Assembly: GCA_025361865.1 (NCBI GenBank)
Contig: JANYJH010000294.1
Location: forward strand, 1-24,943
DNA: 24,943 nucleotides
Direction of reading: 5' to 3'
From: Phragmitibacter sp.
Lineage (GTDB): Bacteria > Verrucomicrobiota > Verrucomicrobiia > Verrucomicrobiales > Verrucomicrobiaceae
The notes beneath the pieces are model-generated. The model saw only the letters and a list, made by a program, of their open reading frames with translations, ran no database searches and was not told the origin of the DNA. The position numbers and the translations under genes were made by a program. How positions within the stretch are numbered: position 1 is the first letter of the stretch; every line of letters begins with the position of its first letter. Positions 1-24,565 of the stretch are shown in pieces.

Positions 1-2004
1 GGCCATCCCACGTTCAGCTTCAAAGTTAATACCGCCGCTACGGACCTTACCTATGTCGTCGAAGCTTCCACCAGCCTGACCGCCAACACTTGGGAAAGAG
101 GCCCTACCATTACCCACCTCACGAACGAGACCGACCTCGGCAACGGCTTCACCCGTCGCACCTACACCTCATGGAACAGCACAGCGGACACCTCCCGGCA
201 GTTCTTCCGGCTCAACATCCTCCAAGGCGACGCCATCCCCGCCGCTTGGTTTACCCGCTACGCTCTGGACCCGAACAGCTCGCCGGATGACGACTTCGAT
301 GGCGATGGCCTGTCGAATCTCCAAGAGTATCTGCACGGCACTGATCCGACCAAGAAGGACACTGATGGTGATGGCGTGAATGACGGCCCTGAAGTCACCT
401 TCGGCACTGACCCAAACGATCCCAATGACACGCCGCCTGAAGTGACGGGAGACATCGTGATCCAGACCCGTTGGGTGACCGTGGAAGTGCAAGATCAATC
501 CTCTCCCATCGGAAAGTTTTACTGGAGCGATGGCAACACGAACTATCCCGCCGGATGGTATCGGGATGTCAATTGGAATCCAGGTCCGCTTATGCCGCAA
601 CTCCACTGGAAATGGAGCAGCAACTCGGGCGGCATCGAGTGGCAGGACGGCAGTTCCGTCGCCGGAGCGCCAGACCTCACCGACCTCACCTTCACCCAAC
701 CCAGCGATGACAGCAACATCGTGGGCAACGCCAGCGACAGCACCCCGAGCGGGCAGAGCGGCATCCCTGAATACATCGCTCCCGAAGACGCCCCCTTTGA
801 TTGGCTTCAGGAATACTCCCAGCACATCTACACCGCCCCGAGTGGCAACCACACTTACAGCACCACGATGACGGAAATCCGTCTGCACCGCTTGGTTCCA
901 GATTCTCCATCACCGAACATCGTCAAGCCCGAAGCCAGCAAAGCATTCCTCGTGCTGCACAAGGTCAGGAACATCGGACAGACGACTGATTCAGTTACCG
1001 GAACAGAAGCCAAGAGTCTGTCTCTGCCCGAAGACGAGGATGATAGCCCGAGCACCCTCCTTGCTCCCACGTTGGAGCCGAATACGTCGAAGGTGGATGT
1101 GGCGATAAAGATGGAAGTAACGATTAAAAAATCATCAGATTCTTCACCACCAGAAGATGGAGTGATCGCGAAGGTGGGAGAAGCCCTTGAGTTCAAAATC
1201 AGCGACCTATCGCAAAGTGAATTCCCCGCCACTGTCGAAAACATGAAATGGTATCAAAAGCAGTTGCAGGCAGATGGCACTTACACGGCGAACTGGCAGG
1301 ACATCGGCACGGAAGCCCGAGGGGTCAGATTTGAGCATACTTATAGCACGGGCGGCATCTTTAGAATCAAATGCGATGTAACCACTGTTTCAGGAACCAG
1401 CACCTACAACTACTTGCGTAAGAAGGACAACATCATGGCGAAGCACAATCCCGATAATGCCAAAGAGTCCGTGCCCGATGGGATGAAGGCGGGAGACCCT
1501 GATGCGATCGGGATATGCGATACTCAAAAGCAAATCGACATCCGCTTTCAGGCGAAGATTAATCTCAACAGCAGCTACTACGCATATAAAAATGACATTC
1601 CTCCCGTAAGGACCGGACCTCATTGCAATATTTTCGTTGCCCATAAGGCGGGAGATGCTGGAGCCACTGTTCCTTGGTTTAATGGAACTTTGACAGCTCA
1701 ACCTCCAGCGGCAAATCAGTGGGCAGGGATTCCATTCAACGCTCCAAATAATCCCGAATATGAATCCAAATTCACGGGTTGGCCTCTTTTACCCAGTGAT
1801 TCCTATCCTCAACCCGGCATGGTGGCGGGCGAAGGCAATTATAACTGGGGCACTGGACACTGCGGAATCGTTGACTACGACGGACAATGGATCAGTTCAT
1901 CAGACCCCAAAGTCAACCGCCATGCTGACTTTGCCAATTACAAAAACACCGATCTGGATGGAAACAAACATCCTGCGGGCAAACGAAAATATACAGGTAA
2001 CTAA
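1..2004 (+). CDS. Large secreted repeat protein, 5'-partial. It has thrombospondin-type-3-like Ca-binding repeats, an Ig/PKD-like beta-sandwich and a low-GC C-terminal domain of unknown function.
   Basis: Frame 1 is open from nt 1 with no stop. The track's 376 start is only a GTG inside the frame. Translation contains DDDFDGDGLSNLQEYLHGTDPTKKDTDGDGVNDGPEVTFGTDPNDPND (DxDxDG repeats). A beta-strand-rich segment (GTYTANWQDIGTEARGVRFEHTYSTGGIFRIKCDVTTVSGTSTY) looks Ig/PKD-like. Stop is TAA at 2002-2004. Confidence 0.75.
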   Translation, partial: GHPTFSFKVNTAATDLTYVVEASTSLTANTWERGPTITHLTNETDLGNGFTRRTYTSWNSTADTSRQFFRLNILQGDAIPAAWFTRYALDPNSSPDDDFDGDGLSNLQEYLHGTDPTKKDTDGDGVNDGPEVTFGTDPNDPNDTPPEVTGDIVIQTRWVTVEVQDQSSPIGKFYWSDGNTNYPAGWYRDVNWNPGPLMPQLHWKWSSNSGGIEWQDGSSVAGAPDLTDLTFTQPSDDSNIVGNASDSTPSGQSGIPEYIAPEDAPFDWLQEYSQHIYTAPSGNHTYSTTMTEIRLHRLVPDSPSPNIVKPEASKAFLVLHKVRNIGQTTDSVTGTEAKSLSLPEDEDDSPSTLLAPTLEPNTSKVDVAIKMEVTIKKSSDSSPPEDGVIAKVGEALEFKISDLSQSEFPATVENMKWYQKQLQADGTYTANWQDIGTEARGVRFEHTYSTGGIFRIKCDVTTVSGTSTYNYLRKKDNIMAKHNPDNAKESVPDGMKAGDPDAIGICDTQKQIDIRFQAKINLNSSYYAYKNDIPPVRTGPHCNIFVAHKAGDAGATVPWFNGTLTAQPPAANQWAGIPFNAPNNPEYESKFTGWPLLPSDSYPQPGMVAGEGNYNWGTGHCGIVDYDGQWISSSDPKVNRHADFANYKNTDLDGNKHPAGKRKYTGN

Positions 2005-2005
2005 T

Positions 2006-2818
2006 ATGACGATACTTCGACTCATTTTGATGCTGATGATTCCTTCAATGTTGCTTACATTGACGGTGAATGGGGAGCTTCCTGCGGAAGCGAAACAGGC
2101 ACGGGCTCTGATGGATAAAGTGTATGAGGCCATCCAGAAGCAAAACTGGAAAGATGCCCGTGATAATCCTGGGGACATGTTTCAAACCACAGAATACCGT
2201 GACCTAGCTCAGGAGTCTCCAGTGATTTGGGAAGCTGCGATGGATCATCTGAATGAGATCGCTCCCAGTGAATCAGATCGTTTTTTGCTCTTGAATGCCC
2301 TTTCATCCCTACCACCAAAGACTTTTTTAAAGGCAGTCCATAAGTCGATTGATCTCTACACTCAGGGCAAGCTAGATGAGACAGCTTTGACAAATTATTT
2401 CTTTTTTAATGGAGGTCCTAATTGGGGCTTTTTTGATGTCAACTACCAAAACCCAGAGGTCATCCAAATCCTTCAGAAATTGAAGATATTATTCGTCAAA
2501 GACGCCATCATGATCAATACCCTCGACAACATTTTATCTGGAGATGGTAAAGTGGGTGTCGAGAATAATATCAGGGATAATCCAGATTATGTAAGACGTT
2601 CGGTTAAAGCTGTTTTGCTTGATAATCCTGAGCCGAAAGATGGAGAAGCAGCCTTTCCCTTAAATCCCGCAATTCCTTCTTCTGGCATCAGTAGCTGGGG
2701 AGCTAAAATCTATTCAATGGCTGGAACGGACTCTTCGTCAGGCTTCCCTATATTGATAAGCGTGGTTCTGGCAGTGCTGGTGGTGATTGGAGGCGTGTTC
2801 TGGTTGAGACGCAAATAG
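2006..2818 (+). CDS. Hypothetical exported protein with N-terminal signal peptide and C-terminal TM anchor plus basic tail. Candidate cognate or immunity partner of the upstream C-terminal domain.
   Basis: ATG lies 1 nt after the upstream stop, with AGG 8-10 nt upstream. N-terminus MTILRLILMLMIPSMLLTLTVNG is a signal peptide. C-terminus is GFPILISVVLAVLVVIGGVFWLRRK. It shares the same low GC (~38-42%) as the 3' end of the upstream gene. The track ORF start at 1760 overlaps the upstream gene and was rejected. Confidence 0.65.
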   Translation: MTILRLILMLMIPSMLLTLTVNGELPAEAKQARALMDKVYEAIQKQNWKDARDNPGDMFQTTEYRDLAQESPVIWEAAMDHLNEIAPSESDRFLLLNALSSLPPKTFLKAVHKSIDLYTQGKLDETALTNYFFFNGGPNWGFFDVNYQNPEVIQILQKLKILFVKDAIMINTLDNILSGDGKVGVENNIRDNPDYVRRSVKAVLLDNPEPKDGEAAFPLNPAIPSSGISSWGAKIYSMAGTDSSSGFPILISVVLAVLVVIGGVFWLRRK

Positions 2819-2944
2819 CTGCCCGCCGACTATTCAGCATTCGTTTCGTGAGTTGCCGGAAACATAGATGACATGAGACGACTTCCTGATGTGGAGACGG
2901 AAGGCTAACGCTTGCACTTTTGCGCGGAGACCGTAAAAAACAGA

Positions 2945-7233: not shown

Positions 7234-7818
7234 ATGATGTGTTTTCTCTCTTCATTCCGCCCCTCATGGATGGCTCTCTTGGCGGCTGTTTTCCTCCCAT
7301 TGCTCCTAGATTCCTGTTCCAGCACCACTCCGAAGTTCGATGGATTGCCAGAAAAACTGCCAGCCATCGCCTTGAATGGTTCCGCCCGCACGCCCGCCCA
7401 TTCCATGCAGAGCACCGAGTATCCTTTTGATTCCAACGGCAACTACGTATCCGAATGGGCAGCGGAAGGGGAACGCCGATCAGGTCGTCCTGCAGCGGCG
7501 ACGAATGATGATGAAGTCAGTCGCCAGAAATCGCACGGGGGTCAGGTCACTGGCGTTCATAAATCCACCGCAAAATCCAAAGTCAGCGATTCCAAAGCAA
7601 AGTCCAAGACCACCACGAAGTCTTCGGATAAGCCTGCTGCCAAAAGCTCTGCCACCACCAAGAAACCCGCCACCAGTGTGAGATACGTGGTGAAGAAAGG
7701 CGATACACTGTCCAGCATCGCGGACCGATTCGACAGCACAATCGCGAAGATCAAGGCGGCCAATGGGCTGAAGAGCAATACGCTGAGTGCAGGCACGGTT
7801 CTGAAGGTTCCCAAATAA
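7234..7818 (+). CDS. LysM-domain lipoprotein with low-complexity K/S/T-rich linker
   Basis: Signal peptide with lipobox-like LLDSC. C-terminal LysM motif is [29 protein letters not shown]...GTVLKVP. The linker is [39 protein letters not shown]. An alternative ATG lies at 7270 ([16 protein letters not shown]). Confidence 0.8.
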
Positions 7819-7879
7819 ATTGGGGATATTCCGTTGAAAATTGATCGTTTCCCTGCCTATTGCGTCAAAGTTGATTCAC

Positions 7880-8641
7880 ATGTGCTTGGTTGGAAAAATA
7901 CATTCGCTCGTTTTGGTCGCGGTGCTCCTTGGCGCTGGGTCAGCTTCCGCTTTTGAGACCGTCGTCATTGATCCTGGGCATGGCGGGAACGATGAAGGAA
8001 CGAAATGGTATCACGTCCGGGAAAAGGATCTCACGCTTGCCGTGGCCAAGCGCCTTGAGCGCGTGCTTCAGATCTACGGCGTGAACACCATGATGACACG
8101 GCGTTACAACACGTATGTCTCGCTTGATGAGCGCTCAGAGATGGCCAATCGCGTGGAGAACTCACTGCTTCTGAGCATTCATTTCAATGCCAGCAGCGCC
8201 CAGTTCATCTCCGGCTTCGAGAGCTTCTATGACTTTCAAACTGAGGGCTGCAGAAACATCGCCTCCTCCATTCAGCAATCCCTCGCGGAAAGCATTCCGA
8301 GCCGCAGCCGCGGAGTGACGAAGCAGGACTTCGCCGTGCTTGTTCGGACCACGGGCTGCGCGGTTCTCATCGAGTGCGGCTTCATCAGCAACAAAGCGGA
8401 AGGCCAGCGCTACGCCACACCTGAAGGTCAGCAAGCACTCGCCGAAGCCATCGCTCGCGGCGTGGTGCGCATCAAGCCGATCATCAACTATGATCTTCCC
8501 ACCAGCATGATCACTCTCGGTGATAAACCGCGCAAGAAGTCCACGCATAACTTACCCGTGGATAACTCAAAGAAGACCGATCCCGTGAAAAAGGTCGCCG
8601 TCACCAGCACACCGGCGAAGACCAAGAAGAAGAAAACGTAG
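7880..8641 (+). CDS. N-acetylmuramoyl-L-alanine amidase (Amidase_3, AmiC-like)
   Basis: VVIDPGHGGND...HVREKDLTL...LLSIHFNA...GVTKQDFAVL...ECGFISN matches the zinc-amidase Amidase_3 fold. Signal peptide begins at the ATG 7880; the track start at 7841 is TTG. It ends in a K-rich tail. Confidence 0.9.
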   Translation: MCLVGKIHSLVLVAVLLGAGSASAFETVVIDPGHGGNDEGTKWYHVREKDLTLAVAKRLERVLQIYGVNTMMTRRYNTYVSLDERSEMANRVENSLLLSIHFNASSAQFISGFESFYDFQTEGCRNIASSIQQSLAESIPSRSRGVTKQDFAVLVRTTGCAVLIECGFISNKAEGQRYATPEGQQALAEAIARGVVRIKPIINYDLPTSMITLGDKPRKKSTHNLPVDNSKKTDPVKKVAVTSTPAKTKKKKT

Positions 8642-8645
8642 CAGG

Positions 8646-9470
8646 TTACAAGCTCACCCGCTGAACGCGTCCGAAGTCAGCCCGCAAGAATCGCTTGGCC
8701 AGCGTCTCGAACTGTTCCGATAAATCCGTGAGATAAAGTTCCAGCTTCGGCTTGCCCTTGGCCGTGCGCAGCAGTTCCTGCTCCGTAAGCAGACGCTTCA
8801 CATGCTCCGCACAGACCACAGCGGAATCCACGAGGCGCACCTTGTTGTTCAGAATCTTCACAAGCAAGGGCTTCAACAAAGGATAGTGCGTGCAGCCCAA
8901 AACCAGCGTGTCCATGCCGCGATCCAGCATGGGTTTGAGATATTCTTTAACGATCATCTTCGTCGCCGGATGATCTATCCAGTCCTCTTCAATGAGTGGC
9001 ACCAGCAGTGGCGTGGCTTCCGCATAAATTTGCAAATCGGGTCGCTTCATGGCTAGCGCGTGTTGATAGGCACAGCTCTTGATGGTGCCCGCCGTCCCGA
9101 TGATGCCGACTCGTTGGCAATGAGGATCAGCCAAGGTGGCTTCCACTCCTGGTTCCAATACGCCGATGATCGGCAGTCGGAACATACTCTGCAAAACGGG
9201 CATCGCATGAGCCGTGGCCGTATTGCACGCGACCACGACTGCTTTGACCCCTTTCGACAGCAGAAACTGAGTGTCTTCCACCGCGAATTTACGGATCGTT
9301 TCCGGTGACTTGGAACCATAGGGAACGCGCGCTGTATCGCCTAGATAGATGATGGATTCACCGGGCAACACGTCCATCAGGGCACGCACCACCGTCAAGC
9401 CACCGACGCCCGAGTCAAAGACACCGAGCGGCGCATTGGGATTAACTTCAATCATTCCCAGATGAAGCAT
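8646..9470 (-). CDS. murI: Glutamate racemase
   Basis: GVFDSGVGGLTV...VVACNTATA...LGCTHYPLL are hallmark MurI motifs, including both catalytic Cys regions. The track start at 9497 is TTG. In-frame ATGs lie at 9470 and 9455. It is convergent with the amidase, with only 4 nt between stops. Confidence 0.9.
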   Translation of the reverse strand: MLHLGMIEVNPNAPLGVFDSGVGGLTVVRALMDVLPGESIIYLGDTARVPYGSKSPETIRKFAVEDTQFLLSKGVKAVVVACNTATAHAMPVLQSMFRLPIIGVLEPGVEATLADPHCQRVGIIGTAGTIKSCAYQHALAMKRPDLQIYAEATPLLVPLIEEDWIDHPATKMIVKEYLKPMLDRGMDTLVLGCTHYPLLKPLLVKILNNKVRLVDSAVVCAEHVKRLLTEQELLRTAKGKPKLELYLTDLSEQFETLAKRFLRADFGRVQRVSL

Positions 9471-9854
9471 GTGATGGATACAAATTTCAAGAGGCAATGC
9501 AGCTCAACTCAATCGCAAAGCGCTAGCATCAGCCCTGCTAATCAACAGATTCTATTGACAAACTCAAGAGATGTATCATCTTCTCATTGTCAGCCGAAGT
9601 CATTCACCCTTCCTGGTGGGTGGCACGGGGGAACCGAACTCCTGGTCTCGCAAGAGAACAGGACGGGGCGCACGGAGTGGGTAACCACTCGCAGAGGTCA
9701 CTTCCAAGATCTAGCCCGTCAGCTAACCTCGTAGGACATTTGGGAGGGACGATTCTCTAAAGCTCGCAGGTCGCGGGTTTCATGATCTCCCTACAGCAAC
9801 AAGCTGCATGAGGCGGGAGACCAAATCACGCGGCGCACCAGCCAACGAGAGAAC

Positions 9855-10168: not shown

Positions 10169-11950
10169 ATGAATACAGACATTCTTGAACTTCTCTGGCA
10201 TAGCTGGTGGATCAAAACACCGCTCATCCTATTCCTCATTTATCATCTGCTCGGATTTGTTTTCATCCGCGAGCATGAGGTCGGCATCGTCATCAAACGC
10301 TTCGCCATGAAGAACCTCGCACCCGGTCAGATTGTGGCCTTGAACGGTGAAGCCGGCTATCAAGCGGACACCCTTGCACCAGGTTTACACCTGTTCTACT
10401 GGCGCTGGCAGTATCGCATCCTATCCAGTGGGCTTATCTATGTGCCACAGGGAGAAATTGCCCTTATCGTCGCCAATGCTGGCGCGTCCATTCCTCCAGG
10501 CCGAATTCTCGGTAGCTTCGTGGACTGTAACCACTTCCAGGATGCCCGCGCATTCCTCACGCAAGGCGGCGAGAAGGGGCGTCAGCTCGGTATTCTTACA
10601 GCTGGGACTTACCGGATCAACACCGCGCTCTTCAGCGTGATCAATACGAACAGCGCCAGCGAGCACGGCCTGAACCCTGCGATGTTACGTCTCTACAAAG
10701 TGGAGCCTGATCGCGTCGGTATCGTCACCACATTGGATGGCGCTCCTATTAGTGAAGGTGAAATCGCAGGTGCTATCGTGACGGGTCATGACAACTTCCA
10801 GAACGCCCAGGCTTTCCTTGATGGCGGCGGTAATCGTGGTCTGCAGGAGCAGATTCTTCTGAGCGGTCAGTGGAATATGAACCCCTGGTTTGCGCAGGTG
10901 GAGCAGGTGCCAATGGTGGAAATCCCCATCGGTCACGTCGGCGTCGTCATCAGCTATGTGGGCAAGATCCACGAGGACGTCAGCGGCGTCGATTTCAAGC
11001 ACGGTGATCTCGTCCTGCCCGGTCACAAGGGCGTCTGGGTCTCTCCGTTGTTCCCCGGCAAGCACCCGCTCAATGTGCGCATCATGCGTGTCGAAATCGT
11101 GCCCACCACGAACATTGTTCTGAACTGGGCCATGCGCACCGAAGCTCATAACTATGACTCGAAGTTGAACTCCATCACGGTCCGTTCAAAGGACGGCTTC
11201 GCGTTCAATCTCGACGTGTCACAGATCATCCACATCAGCACGGAGAAGGCTCCAAAGGTCATCAGTCGCGCGGGTTCCTTGCAGAATCTCATCGACCATG
11301 TGCTCCAGCCTTTGGTCGGTAATTACTTCCGTAACAGTGCCCAAGGTTACAGCGTGCTCGACTTCCTCAGCGCCCGAACACAGCGTCAGACAGAGGCCAC
11401 CCAGCACATCCGTGCCGCGCTCAAAGAGTATGATGTGGAAGCCATTGACACCTTGATCGGCGACATCACGCCACCCGAAGCATTGATGAAAACTCAGACG
11501 GATCGCAAGATCGCCGAGGAACAACAGAAGACCTACGAGATGCAGGAAAGCGCGGAGAAGCAACGCCAACAACTCGTGCGTCAGACCAGCCTTGCGGACA
11601 TTCAGCATGAAGTCGTCGGAGCAGAGCAAGGCGTGCAGATCGCCGAGCTTCATGCCCGTGCCAGCGTGCGCTCCAGTGAAGGTGAAGCGGAGTCCATTCG
11701 CCTCAAAGCCAGCGGTGAATCCGATGCTATCCGTGCGATGGGTAACGCAAAAGCGGAAGCCTATCAGGCCGGTGTGCAGTCCCTCGGCCAGGAAAGCTAC
11801 GCCTTGCTGCAACTCATGCAGATCATCGGCGAGCGCAACGTCCGCGTGGTTCCTGATGTCAGCGTCAGCGGAGCCCAAGGCAGCAATGGTCTTCTGGATG
11901 CCTTGCTGGGCTTGAAGCTCAAGAAGGATGTCGTCGAACTCAAAGCCTGA
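10169..11950 (+). CDS. Flotillin-like SPFH/band-7 membrane protein (YqiK/FloA-like)
   Basis: N-terminal TM (IKTPLILFLIYHLLGFVFI), then an SPFH domain. The C-terminal half has flotillin-type Ala/Glu-rich coiled-coil repeats (AEEQQKTYEMQESAEKQRQQL...EAESIRLKASGESDAIRAMGNAKAEAYQAG). Confidence 0.9.
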   Translation: MNTDILELLWHSWWIKTPLILFLIYHLLGFVFIREHEVGIVIKRFAMKNLAPGQIVALNGEAGYQADTLAPGLHLFYWRWQYRILSSGLIYVPQGEIALIVANAGASIPPGRILGSFVDCNHFQDARAFLTQGGEKGRQLGILTAGTYRINTALFSVINTNSASEHGLNPAMLRLYKVEPDRVGIVTTLDGAPISEGEIAGAIVTGHDNFQNAQAFLDGGGNRGLQEQILLSGQWNMNPWFAQVEQVPMVEIPIGHVGVVISYVGKIHEDVSGVDFKHGDLVLPGHKGVWVSPLFPGKHPLNVRIMRVEIVPTTNIVLNWAMRTEAHNYDSKLNSITVRSKDGFAFNLDVSQIIHISTEKAPKVISRAGSLQNLIDHVLQPLVGNYFRNSAQGYSVLDFLSARTQRQTEATQHIRAALKEYDVEAIDTLIGDITPPEALMKTQTDRKIAEEQQKTYEMQESAEKQRQQLVRQTSLADIQHEVVGAEQGVQIAELHARASVRSSEGEAESIRLKASGESDAIRAMGNAKAEAYQAGVQSLGQESYALLQLMQIIGERNVRVVPDVSVSGAQGSNGLLDALLGLKLKKDVVELKA

Positions 11951-21186: not shown

Positions 21187-22167
21187 TTACATGTGCAGAA
21201 GAAACTTGGCGAACCCGTGGTAAAGCGGGATGCCGAAGACGATGTTGAAGGGGAAAGTCATCGCTAGGGAAGAGGTGAAGTAGAGCGCGGGGCTGGCCTT
21301 CGGCAGTGCGATACGCACGGCGGCGGGCGCGGCGATGTAGGAGGCGCTTGCCGCCAGCGTGGCCAGAACCGTGATGCCGCCGAGGCCGAGGCCGCTCCAG
21401 AGACCGAGCACAGCCCCGATGAAGCCGTGGAGGATCGGCATCAGAATCGCAAAGGCCACCAGCCGCCATCCGACCGTCTTCAGGTCATGCAATTTCCGTC
21501 CGGTAATGAGGCCGACTTCCAGCAAGAACAGCGTGAGAACGCCTTTGAACGGCGCATCGAAGAGAGGCGCGACTTGATCAAATCCCTTATGTCCGGTGAG
21601 CAAGCCGATGGCCAAGCCACCGAGCAGTAAGATGATTCCCTTCCCCGTCAGCAGGTCGTGGAGCAGGTGCTTGAATCCACCGGAAGCAGAGCTGTTGTCA
21701 CTGCTTTTTCTCATGGCCAGAAACACCGCGACGATGATGGCGGGGGCTTCCATCACGGCCAGTAGCGCGGGGATGAAGCCTTCCACGGGGATCTTCGCAT
21801 TCTCCAAAAAGGCCAAGGCCGCGCTGAAGGTGACGGCTGAGACGGAGCCGTAATGCGCCGCGATAGCTCCTGCATTGATAGAGTCCAGTCTGACAAATCC
21901 TTTCAGCACGTAAAAGCTCCAGATGGGAATGGCGATGCTCAGCAGGATGGCGCTCAGCAGTGGCCCGCCCACCACCATGAGGCTCACGCCTTCCAGCTTC
22001 ATTCCACCCTTCAATCCGATGGCGAAGAGCAGGTAGATGGTCAGTGCGGATTGCAGCTCCTCAGGGAATTTCAGATCGCTCTTCAGTAATGTGGCGATGA
22101 TGCCCAGAGCGAAGGCGAGGACCATGGGGGAAAGCAGGCTGGTGGAGAGGGATTGAAGGAGTTCCAT
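21187..22167 (-). CDS. sbtA: SbtA-like sodium-dependent bicarbonate permease family (DUF897/Sbt_1) membrane protein
   Basis: About 10 predicted TM helices in two halves. Recalled similarity to cyanobacterial SbtA blocks (SPMVLAFALGII...IGLKGG; AHYGSVSAVTFSAALAFLE...PALLAVMEAPAIIVAVFLA). It lies directly upstream of the beta-CA on the same strand. Confidence 0.75.
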   Translation of the reverse strand: MELLQSLSTSLLSPMVLAFALGIIATLLKSDLKFPEELQSALTIYLLFAIGLKGGMKLEGVSLMVVGGPLLSAILLSIAIPIWSFYVLKGFVRLDSINAGAIAAHYGSVSAVTFSAALAFLENAKIPVEGFIPALLAVMEAPAIIVAVFLAMRKSSDNSSASGGFKHLLHDLLTGKGIILLLGGLAIGLLTGHKGFDQVAPLFDAPFKGVLTLFLLEVGLITGRKLHDLKTVGWRLVAFAILMPILHGFIGAVLGLWSGLGLGGITVLATLAASASYIAAPAAVRIALPKASPALYFTSSLAMTFPFNIVFGIPLYHGFAKFLLHM

Positions 22168-22220
22168 GAGTGTTGTGTGGGTGTGAGGCTTGCGAACAGG
22201 ATGTTTCTGGTGTTTATTTA

Positions 22221-22256
22221 CATGAATCTAAATACATGAGCTCTAATTCATGTATT
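22221..22256. promoter_or_regulatory. Palindromic operator-like site in divergent sbtA / wHTH-regulator promoter region
   Basis: Perfect 9-bp inverted repeat AATACATGA-N8-TCATGTATT, with an additional CATGAAT/ATTCATG half-site copy just upstream. The region is AT-rich, in the 120-bp gap between divergent genes. Confidence 0.5.
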
Positions 22257-22287
22257 GCATTACAGTTCTTTAACGTCAATCCGAAAA

Positions 22288-22608
22288 ATGAAAAAATCTG
22301 AGACACCGCGCCCAGAGCCTTCTGGTTGGACCTTCTTCACGAACCATGCGCATGTGCTGCTATGCCTGGCTTCTGATCCAGAGATGCGATTACGTGACCT
22401 CGCCGCCACCGTCGGCATTACAGAACGCGCCGTTCACAAGGTGGTTTCAGAGCTGGAAGAGGGCGGCGTGCTGGAGCGGGAAAAACAGGGACGGCGGAAC
22501 GTCTATACCATTCACGGTAAGCTTCCGCTGCGGCATCCGGTGGAGTCGCACTGCACGGTGCGGGGACTCATCAAGTTCGTGATTGAATCACGCCCCAAGC
22601 CCCGCTGA
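22288..22608 (+). CDS. Winged-helix (MarR/ArsR-like) transcriptional regulator
   Basis: ~107 aa with an HTH-like segment LRDLAATVGITERAVHKVVSELEEGGVLEREKQGRRNVY. It is divergent from sbtA. The track start at 22255 is TTG and overlaps the palindrome; the ATG at 22288 was preferred. Confidence 0.68.
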   Translation: MKKSETPRPEPSGWTFFTNHAHVLLCLASDPEMRLRDLAATVGITERAVHKVVSELEEGGVLEREKQGRRNVYTIHGKLPLRHPVESHCTVRGLIKFVIESRPKPR

Positions 22609-22703
22609 GCTTCTTGCGCAAAATCGATTGGCAGTCCCTGAGTGGTCCGCTTTGAGCATTTTTCAATGCTTGCCTTGAACTAAGGAAAGGATAAACTTGG
22701 GCC

Positions 22704-22928
22704 ATGACACCGTTGATTGATCGTATCACGTTTAACCCCAAACAATGCGGTGGGCGTCCGTGTATTCGCGGGATGCGCATTCGTGTCAGTGACGTGCTTG
22801 ATCTTTTCGCATCTGGATTGGATGCTGTTCAGATTCTTGATGAGATGCCAGATTTGGAATCAGATGACATCAAGGCTTGTCTCGCATTTGCCAGTCGTCG
22901 TATAGACCATCCGCTTTTGGCTGCATGA
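22704..22928 (+). CDS. DUF433-family protein (antitoxin-like partner)
   Basis: ITFNPKQCGGRPCIRGMRIRVSDVLDLFASGLDAVQILDEMPDLESDDIKACLAFA matches the DUF433 consensus (G-x-P-x-I-x-G-T-R-I-x-V ... P-x-L-x-x-x-D-I). A strong SD (AAGGAAAGGA) lies upstream. Confidence 0.8.
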   Translation: MTPLIDRITFNPKQCGGRPCIRGMRIRVSDVLDLFASGLDAVQILDEMPDLESDDIKACLAFASRRIDHPLLAA

Positions 22929-23260
22929 TTCTTTGGGTAGATGCTCAATTATCGCCGCGAATTGCTCGCTGGATTACTGATCATAATCCCAACGTCACTG
23001 CACTGGCGCTTCGAGAGATAGGACTGCGAGATGCGGAAGATGAGGTGATCTTTGCTGCCGCTCGCGCTGCCAATGTGATCGTGCTGACGAAAGACAGCGA
23101 CTTCATCCACTTGCTGGAAATATATGGTAGCCCACCGAAGATTCTCTGGCTCACCTGCGGCAACACATCCGATGCTGTATTGCAGGAGCTTCTAGGACTG
23201 CATCTTTCCACCGCGCTCAGCTTCTTGGCTGATGGTGAAGATTTGGTAGAGATAGGTTAA
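22925..23260 (+). CDS. DUF5615-family PIN-like protein (toxin-like partner of DUF433)
   Basis: Starts MILWVDAQLSPRIARWI...VIVLTKDSDF, typical of the small PIN-like DUF5615 proteins paired with DUF433. Its ATG overlaps the DUF433 stop (ATGA). Confidence 0.72.
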   Translation: MILWVDAQLSPRIARWITDHNPNVTALALREIGLRDAEDEVIFAAARAANVIVLTKDSDFIHLLEIYGSPPKILWLTCGNTSDAVLQELLGLHLSTALSFLADGEDLVEIG

Positions 23261-23278
23261 AGGCGGAGGCCAATATAC

Positions 23279-24565
23279 TCAAGGTAACTGCGGCTTGCTC
23301 CCGAGGCACCAGAGGGTCTTCTCCGTTCTGACGAAGAGATGATTCCAAGCGATGGCGGGCGTTGAGTTAATGGGCGCGTCGAGTTTGCTGGCTCCCAGCA
23401 GTTCAAATTTAGGGCCAGCTTTGACGACGATGACATCGCCGGTTTGAGAGCAGCAGAAGATCTTGCCGTCGCCTGCGATGGGGCTACTGAAGAACTTGGC
23501 GCTGTTGCCCGTGGCTCCGCTGAGGCGCTCGCTGTAAACCTCGGAACCGGTCTTCAGATCGAAGCAGGTGAAGATGCCGCCGTCGTTGAGCAGATACATT
23601 TCACCGCCAATGATGAGCGGGGTGGGGACGTAGGGCAGACCTTTCTTGATCTCAAAGACGACGGCGGGGGCTTCGCCTGCATTCCCGAGTTTCAGCGCGG
23701 CGGATTCCTGACCGTTGCCGCCTTGGCCCATCGTTCCGAAGATGAAGTTATCCTGAAGGGCGATGGAGCCGACGGAGCGCATTTTGTAACCGGGATTGTG
23801 CTGCCAGTTGACGTTGCCCGTGGCGGCATCGAGCCCGACGAAGCCGCTGGTGCTATCAGCGATGATGACTTCTTTGCCCTTGGCGGTGTCGCGCACGACA
23901 GGAGTGCTGAAGGCGGTTTTGCTGGCGGGTAGGACGTGCTTCCACTTGGTCGCGCCCGTGGCAGCATCAAGCCCGAGGATGCTGTTTTCCTTCGCGCTGG
24001 ATTCGCTTTTGCCATCTTCTCCAGCCTGTTCATTGCGGACGATCAAGATGCCGTTCACGACGATGGGCGAGGCTCCGTAGCCGTGCTCGTGATCGAAGAG
24101 CGCGAGGTTATCGCGCTTCCAAACTACCTTGCCAGTGTGGTCCAAGGCGAGCGCGTCGATTTGATCACCGTTCGCCCAGACGATGTAAACGCGCGCTTCA
24201 TCCACGAAGGGCGTGGTGGAGGCGTAGGAGTTGAACTTGTGCTTCTTGTGGGCCTGGAAGGGGGCTTCGTAGCTCCAGAGGGTTTTGCCAGTGCCTGCAT
24301 TCAGGCAGAGCACGGCGCGCTTGCCTTCACTGGACTCATCCATAACGAAGAGCTTTTCTTTGAAGAAGACGGGTGAGGACCAGCCTGCGCCGAGATCCAC
24401 TTTCCAAGTGGTCGTGGCCGCGTCGAAAGTCGTGGGCAAGCCTTTGGCTTCAGCCACGCCAGTGCCGTTCGGTCCCCGGAAGCGCGACCATTCTTCTGCG
24501 TGAACGGACAGGGCAGATGCGCTGAGGGCCAGGAGGACGAGGAAGGAGAGGGGTTGATGTTTCAT
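23279..24565 (-). CDS. PQQ-repeat beta-propeller protein, secreted
   Basis: Signal peptide MKHQPLSFLVLLALSASALSVHA. It has repeated W-x-x-x-x-G / G-x-V-Y-x-x-x-x-D-G-x-L-x-A-x-D-A-x-T-G-x-x-x-W motifs (LDAATGATKWK, LDAATGNVNWQ, FDLKTGSEVY) characteristic of PQQ/BamB-like propellers. Confidence 0.85.
   Translation of the reverse strand: MKHQPLSFLVLLALSASALSVHAEEWSRFRGPNGTGVAEAKGLPTTFDAATTTWKVDLGAGWSSPVFFKEKLFVMDESSEGKRAVLCLNAGTGKTLWSYEAPFQAHKKHKFNSYASTTPFVDEARVYIVWANGDQIDALALDHTGKVVWKRDNLALFDHEHGYGASPIVVNGILIVRNEQAGEDGKSESSAKENSILGLDAATGATKWKHVLPASKTAFSTPVVRDTAKGKEVIIADSTSGFVGLDAATGNVNWQHNPGYKMRSVGSIALQDNFIFGTMGQGGNGQESAALKLGNAGEAPAVVFEIKKGLPYVPTPLIIGGEMYLLNDGGIFTCFDLKTGSEVYSERLSGATGNSAKFFSSPIAGDGKIFCCSQTGDVIVVKAGPKFELLGASKLDAPINSTPAIAWNHLFVRTEKTLWCLGSKPQLP

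Follow-up and report, generated by a model that had tools for sequence, protein, structure and literature searches.

Analysis of a 24,943-nt stretch of DNA from Phragmitibacter sp. (assembly GCA_025361865.1, contig JANYJH010000294.1, positions 1 to 24,943; hereafter the window) indicates that the region from nt ~1085 to 2818 is probably a polymorphic-toxin-type cassette of two genes, toxin and immunity, in which the C-terminal tip of a large secreted protein is a predicted peptidoglycan hydrolase and the coupled partner gene encodes its predicted periplasmic inhibitor. A polymorphic toxin/immunity locus had been proposed in a preliminary description made from the sequence alone; our analysis supports this proposal, and all computational predictions that were put to test turned out positive. 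The pair defines two uncurated families, one of divergent CHAP-like hydrolase tips and one of helical periplasmic proteins, the cognate partners of these tips. When 1.84 billion representatives were searched exhaustively with HMMER, the tip family numbered 404 cluster representatives at E<=1e-3, of which 251 reached E<=1e-10. Tip and partner together appear as a self-contained mobile cassette in Verrucomicrobiota, Kiritimatiellia, and Lentisphaerae, gut and rumen lineages included. The polymorphic-toxin concept itself is unchanged by this observation; what is new is the toxin family and the immunity family, and the pair offers a new predicted peptidoglycan hydrolase together with its putative inhibitor.

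The assignment of the tip draws on its modelled structure and on the residues conserved in its family. The AlphaFold model of the 170-aa domain, built on a 50-sequence alignment (predicted local distance difference test, pLDDT, 91.3; predicted template modelling score, pTM, 0.90), shows a papain-like alpha+beta arrangement in which the Cys is placed at the N-terminus of a helix and a strand begins at the His. The Cys (HCNIF), His (GHCGIV), and Asp (YDG) are invariant in 50 sequences, and the Cys and His are invariant in 75 full-length members. As modelled, the tip enzyme has the fold of NlpC/P60-CHAP cell-wall hydrolases, and its catalytic triad is intact. The Cys/His stretches pointed out in the preliminary description are indeed present, but family-wide conservation is confined to the Cys in HCNIF and the His in GHCGIV. 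The domain had also been called unrecognisable, which holds for curated sequence models but not for the structure search, where the NlpC/P60-CHAP fold was recovered. A confident housekeeping annotation, which had been listed as an observation that would speak against a toxin locus, was found neither in Pfam and NCBIfam nor among PDB sequences, where single-sequence and profile searches both returned no match. The position of the tip is constant: all 151 members examined have it at their extreme C-terminus (median of 1 residue after it, 0-2379 aa ahead of it), and the N-terminal regions that precede it are highly diverse, with little in common beyond bacterial thrombospondin type-3 (TSP3) repeats. 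Signal-peptide-like N-termini were predicted in 49 of the 84 long tip-family members. In three of the long members (P0004, P0015, and P0074), a recurring 'P(A/S)WW ... N.GQ.K' motif directly follows the signal peptide and might serve as a so far uncharacterised targeting element at the N-terminus.

The gene downstream of the tip is conserved along with it. From 60 tip-encoding genome loci recovered, 57 had usable downstream sequence, and 56 of these carried a same-strand open reading frame (ORF) whose start lies between -16 and +42 nt relative to the toxin stop. The downstream ORFs encode 118-412 aa (all but two 189-290 aa), and a single partner family, with motifs such as VSNNW, TNE..R, and LSGE.K, takes in 53 of the 57 downstream proteins. 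The window partner is related to those of L002 (1.4e-25), L011 (6e-12), and L009 (3e-9) by phmmer. Its ATG at nt 2006 follows the toxin TAA at 2002-2004 with the 1-nt spacing given in the preliminary description, and the signal peptide proposed there was borne out, a similar N-terminus being present in 55 of the 57 homologous partners. A C-terminal anchor is found in 17 of the 57, and in the window protein a low-complexity linker separates the helical domain from the transmembrane helix. The suspicion that the pair was undescribed proved right in that both families are uncurated (no Pfam or NCBIfam model covers the partner family), but the partner is not unique, since a conserved cognate family is detected by the partner hidden Markov model (HMM) in 52 of the 60 loci. 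The apparent orphan status of tip and partner in a word-indexed search, which found one tip homologue and for the partner only itself, was overturned by exhaustive HMMER and a genome scan. Exosortase-type C-terminal sorting of the partner was set aside, as the CTERM model matches reached only E ~0.1 with no consistent motif. The partner is a predicted immunity protein that most likely binds and blocks the hydrolase. Two kinds of deviating loci were also noticed. At L049:6817-7614, L051:~873-1650, and L055:~632-1430 the downstream gene belongs to a different family, whose proteins are 260-266 aa long and carry a signal peptide as well as the C-terminal sequence '...DSPLKDYIYLRLYEKMR' and which may be an alternative immunity family, and at L028:2-1219 the tip and partner HMMs both match one ORF, which suggests a fusion or a frameshift/assembly artefact.

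As to the substrate, peptide or amide bonds in peptidoglycan are the most likely targets of the tip. It is conceivable that the pair is a toxin and its immunity protein, and that the papain-like domain attacks a different target, such as membrane lipids (as Tox-Act1 and TseH do), lipoproteins, or periplasmic proteins. We consider such a target unlikely. Permuted NlpC/P60 enzymes, in which the His precedes the Cys, are the lipid-targeting ones, while the Cys-then-His order is that of the peptidoglycan-cleaving branches (PMC12994826). In the tip, the Cys (nt 1624) precedes the His (nt 1858) in the canonical, non-permuted order; a lipid target, which the preliminary description had offered as an option, is therefore improbable. 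The best structural matches of the tip are all peptidoglycan endopeptidases or amidases, and the restriction of the membrane tether to a minority of the partners likewise speaks against a target other than peptidoglycan.

We then compared scaffolds, tips, and partners across relatives. In three Kiritimatiellia loci (L032:4114-7269, L015:2-2928, and L020:2263-5432), the scaffolds are 90-100% identical through the immunoglobulin (Ig)-like domain, and then, some 190 residues ahead of the stop and directly after 'ERFYVWD', identity drops to 35-50%. The similarity of the DNA (89%) likewise breaks off ~500 nt before the stop, and the partners of the three loci are mutually only 24-32% identical. Judged from these alignments, the three loci are a clean natural example of tip/immunity replacement, and a milder version of the same breakpoint pattern was found in L046 and L048. 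The conserved scaffold with a variable 3' tip and partner, anticipated in the preliminary description, is thus seen in relatives, but the boundary of the swap had been placed before the Ig domain (nt 1085), and in relatives the junction lies after it (~1411 in window coordinates). The window sequence 'YNYLRKKDN' (nt 1411) aligns with the 'ERFYVWD' junction, which falls between nt 1085 and the optimum at nt 1582 of the shift in GC content at third codon positions (GC3) described below. Across the family, the rate of divergence of the partner is about double that of the tip (mean identity of 18% vs 38%, the partner having the lower value in 99.8% of pairs). Additional partner genes stand in tandem at six distinct loci (L004/L005, which are one sequence under two bin names, L017, L019, L024, L035, and L040), and toxin remnants lacking the catalytic Cys are followed by intact partners at L058:5763-6926 and L061:5835-6612. 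The L058 remnant adjoins a cytosine methylase/DUF4928 pair, and the L061 remnant adjoins genes resembling those of type II secretion (T2SS), namely T2SS-E (fused to FHA) and T2SS-F-like genes. The window itself carries neither extra partner genes nor displaced toxin remnants.

These patterns bear on whether the locus serves conflict at all. The large protein could be an adhesin-like surface protein whose tip remodels the wall of its own producer for passage or anchoring, with the partner as a periplasmic regulator or adaptor comparable to MepS-NlpI and LytE-IseA. Such a role is quite unlikely in view of the partner duplications and the retention of intact partners beside toxin remnants, the sharp breakpoints of tip plus partner on nearly identical scaffolds, and the very fast divergence of the partner, which moreover has no lipobox. 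Several metagenome-assembled genomes (MAGs) contain two to four divergent pairs each, and the gene context is not conserved, the neighbours of the pair being unrelated between loci (115 genes in 100 Pfam families, none in more than 2 loci). The foreign composition of the pair argues in the same direction.

The composition of the window changes markedly over the cassette. A two-change-point maximum-likelihood fit placed the borders at nt 1081 and 2760, with segments of 58.5%, 46.1%, and 56.1% GC (55.7% for the whole window), and these borders nearly coincide with the low-GC block of 1085-2820 reported in the preliminary description. That block has a GC content of 46.5%, compared to a mean of 56.3% (sd 1.8, minimum 52.7%) in other 1736-nt windows. 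Some of the reported values had to be revised: a fall does occur, but the range of ~38-45% fits the partner gene (44.3%) and not the toxin part (1085-2004, 48.5%), local minima of 37.5-38% are confined to ~2300-2600, and the intergenic region 3' of the partner measures 52.7% instead of ~58%. Uniform GC or codon usage, named as an observation that would count against the description, was not seen, as GC and GC3 both shift. GC3 is 0.71 for nt 1-1083, 0.60 for 1084-1491, 0.45 for 1492-2004, and 0.46 for the partner, and the corresponding change point is significant (0/1000 permutations) yet gradual (optimum nt 1582, support interval 874-1597); the sharp boundary described earlier therefore holds for overall GC (nt 1081) but not for GC3. 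A similar bias is found in homologous loci (n=33), where GC lies below that of the flanks by an average of 10.4 points in the partner (lower in 31/33), 6.4 points in the Ig-plus-tip segment (lower in 29/33), and just 0.5 points in the N-terminal part of the toxin gene. No meaningful direct or inverted repeats were found at the cassette borders in the window, and promoter/terminator signals were not above background. A second, milder GC dip (~51%) at window positions 22000-23300 contains only short ORFs between genes ending at 22167 and 23279, and it has no Rfam match.

Low GC could also arise from amino-acid composition or from relaxed codon selection in weakly expressed, fast-evolving, long-resident genes, and not from transfer or exchange, but we regard this as very unlikely. 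In its favour, the overall GC step is sharper than the GC3 step, so amino-acid content does contribute, and the bias recurs in genomes of 40 to 68% GC and could therefore be an intrinsic family property, while against this the GC3 of tip and partner lies outside the range of all other window genes (0.57-0.745) and relatives show a real replacement of tip and partner in which DNA similarity itself ends.

Based on these observations, we propose that the cassette acts in antagonism between bacteria. A Sec-exported large scaffold with TSP3 repeats and other domains would carry a PKD/Ig-like domain and then the non-permuted cysteine hydrolase tip, which would cleave the peptidoglycan of competing bacteria. 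The scaffold of TSP3 and Ig domains might mediate surface display, release, or target binding. The partner, presumably anchored in the inner membrane by its C-terminal helix at the window locus, would inhibit the hydrolase in the periplasm of the producer, both during Sec-dependent transit and against attack by sister cells; cis-protection in Xanthomonas type IV secretion system effectors offers a comparison for such self-protection (PMC10933484). Tip and partner would move and diversify jointly, being exchanged on otherwise conserved scaffolds, and such exchange would explain their foreign, GC-poor composition.

Several observations weigh against a toxin/immunity cassette, with regard to both its parts and its delivery. 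The window tip has no Pfam match at E<=1 and none in NCBIfam, and CHAP, the only superfamily model reached by other tip members, is matched across the Cys-to-His region in some of them at 24.6 bits at best, below the 26-bit cut-off (the gathering threshold). The partner model, built on a 5-sequence alignment, is an alpha-helical repeat of moderate confidence (pLDDT 74.6), and its PDB neighbours were only generic solenoids, with no known immunity protein among them. Distance matrices of tip and partner are correlated (Mantel r 0.75, 0/2000 permutations), which points at minimum to co-inheritance and could come from linkage alone. Known trafficking domains (RHS, PAAR, VgrG, LXG, WXG, and TPS/FHA) were absent from 75 members by Pfam, the window protein being seen there without its N-terminus, and no secretion genes recur among the 115 neighbouring genes. 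Finally, the metagenome scan and the family members yielded no orthologue of the window scaffold, the TSP3 repeats being the only matches, so that tip replacement is documented in relatives and not at the window locus.

The distribution of the loci suggests a further, tentative idea. The PVC superphylum (Planctomycetota, Verrucomicrobiota, and relatives) accounts for 46 of the 60 loci (20 Verrucomicrobiota, 22 Kiritimatiellia, 3 Lentisphaerae, and 1 Planctomycetota), and 9 of the 60 come from bins named otherwise, where their contigs are mostly short (2-13 kb). No relatives of the pair were found in plasmid, phage, and viral-contig collections, and carriage on plasmids or phages is thus unsupported. 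Conceivably, though doubtfully, the pair belongs to an antagonism system specific to the PVC superphylum that works without the known toxin-delivery machines, in which an exchangeable NlpC/P60 cell-wall hydrolase is displayed on, or released from, a calcium-binding surface scaffold of TSP3/Ig domains exported by Sec, and a new alpha-solenoid immunity family protects the periplasm of the producer. If true, such a system would represent a new delivery logic for polymorphic toxins. To our knowledge, interbacterial warfare in the PVC group is essentially uncharted, and very little is known of how bacteria of these lineages compete.

The layout of the two genes is given in Table 1. The ORF of the toxin gene extends beyond the 5' end of the window, the N-terminus of the protein lying outside it, so that only 667 codons of the protein called giant in the preliminary description are visible; another assembly from this organism (GCA_025354425.1) stops even earlier. 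The calcium-binding repeats and the Ig/PKD-like sandwich of the preliminary description are both present. The TSP3 repeats, the sole part of the scaffold in common with other family members, are also matched by the TSP3 regions of the NCBIfam models MtsD and CglD (aa 97-154). A weak NCBIfam 'Amuc_1099 pilus-like' match (aa 75-119), which adjoins and overlaps the start of these repeats, was rejected as a functional clue (26.9 bits against a cut-off of 50). The strands of the PKD/Ig-like domain correspond to residues 3-85 of the AlphaFold2 (AF2) model of window:1156-2004 (pLDDT 94-98) and resemble the PKD domains of ColH and ColG by Foldseek (E ~7e-3, probability 0.98-1.0), with a weak Pfam PKD_4 match (E 0.022). 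This domain is part of the family consensus and precedes the catalytic domain in most members. Among the 75 members, the Pfam domains found were TSP3_bac (21), Laminin_G_3, LTD, Calx-beta, fn3, PKD, and Big_1.

Table 1. Features of the predicted toxin/immunity cassette and its scaffold in the window (nt positions)
Feature	Position	Strand	Basis or remark
3' part of large secreted multidomain protein, 667 codons + stop	1..2004	+	Frame 1 open from nt 1 to TAA 2002-2004
Bacterial TSP3 calcium-binding repeats, GC-normal scaffold	289..462	+	Pfam TSP3_bac E 5.5e-11
PKD/Ig-like beta-sandwich	1114..1410	+	AF2 strands, Foldseek, weak Pfam PKD_4
Linker	1411..1491	+	Low pLDDT, model residues 101-107; equivalent to recombination junction of relatives
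Predicted divergent NlpC/P60-CHAP papain-like hydrolase domain (toxin tip)	1492..2001	+	Cys 1624-1626, His 1858-1860, Asp 1879-1881
Partner gene, 270 aa + stop, predicted periplasmic immunity protein, translationally coupled	2006..2818	+	1-nt spacer; partner HMM 8e-48
Partner signal-peptide-like N-terminus (MTILRLILMLMIPSMLLTLTVNG), no lipobox cysteine	2006..2074	+	Hydrophobicity scan
Partner all-alpha helical-repeat domain, 'ILSGDGK' version of LSGE.K motif	2075..2635	+	
Partner C-terminal transmembrane helix + RRK tail (membrane tether)	2744..2815	+	Hydrophobicity 3.12

Elsewhere in the window, genes for a LysM protein, an Amidase_3 N-acetylmuramoyl-L-alanine amidase, and an Asp/Glu racemase are located 4-7 kb downstream of the pair (7234-9497). 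The proximity of these peptidoglycan genes is probably coincidental because the neighbourhood is not conserved beside homologous pairs. A full-length c-di-AMP riboswitch (Rfam RF00379, 45.8 bits, E 7e-8) was detected at 9582-9752 (+), ~417 nt upstream of an SPFH/Band_7 gene (10169-11950).

The pair can be compared with several known systems. Polymorphic toxin systems have been catalogued with NlpC/P60-clade peptidase tips (e.g., Hoch_2166) and with a Sec/T2SS-type category (Zhang et al. 2012, Biol Direct 7:18, PMC3482391), a category that suits those tip-family proteins bearing only a signal peptide. As in those systems, large secreted multidomain proteins carry the toxin domain at their extreme C-terminus, a putative immunity gene lies directly downstream, tips vary on conserved scaffolds, and extra or orphan partner genes occur. 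Unlike them, the tip and partner families match no Pfam/NCBIfam model, the tip is almost always accompanied by a PKD/Ig domain, the scaffolds carry TSP3 repeats and not RHS, FilH, or PAAR, and the distribution is essentially restricted to the PVC superphylum.

Tae amidase effectors are small, single-domain proteins that have no signal peptide and are loaded onto a type VI secretion system (T6SS). The predicted working of the window pair is like that of the Type VI amidase pairs (Tse1/Tae1-Tsi1, Tae3-Tai3, and Ssp1/Tae4-Rap1a/Tai4), whereas the domain here tips long Sec-type proteins and the window partner resembles no solved Tai/Tsi/Rap structure. T6SS domains were absent from the 75 members, and no T6SS gene recurred among the 115 neighbours; owing to this lack of a T6SS link, the length of the proteins, and their Sec-type N-termini, the pair is not a member of Tae/Tai.

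Rhs and CdiA cassettes have junctions marked by VENN or PxxxxDPxGL and mostly cytoplasmic toxins, and in them a GC-rich Rhs core is followed by an AT-rich tip and downstream ORF. The cassette described here similarly has a GC-normal body followed by a GC-poor, variable tip and a putative immunity gene, with a sharp junction and displaced remnants. It differs in having no Rhs/YD or filamentous-haemagglutinin repeats and in the placement of the junction after the last Ig strand ('ERFYVWD' / 'YLRKKDN'), where no strictly conserved motif was identified. With housekeeping NlpC/P60 and CHAP autolysins (e.g., LytE-IseA and MepS-NlpI) the tip has the catalytic fold in common, and in autolysins control is exerted by a dedicated binding protein. 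Such autolysins are, however, single-copy, syntenic, slowly evolving, and not polymorphic tips, and in these respects the pair behaves oppositely.

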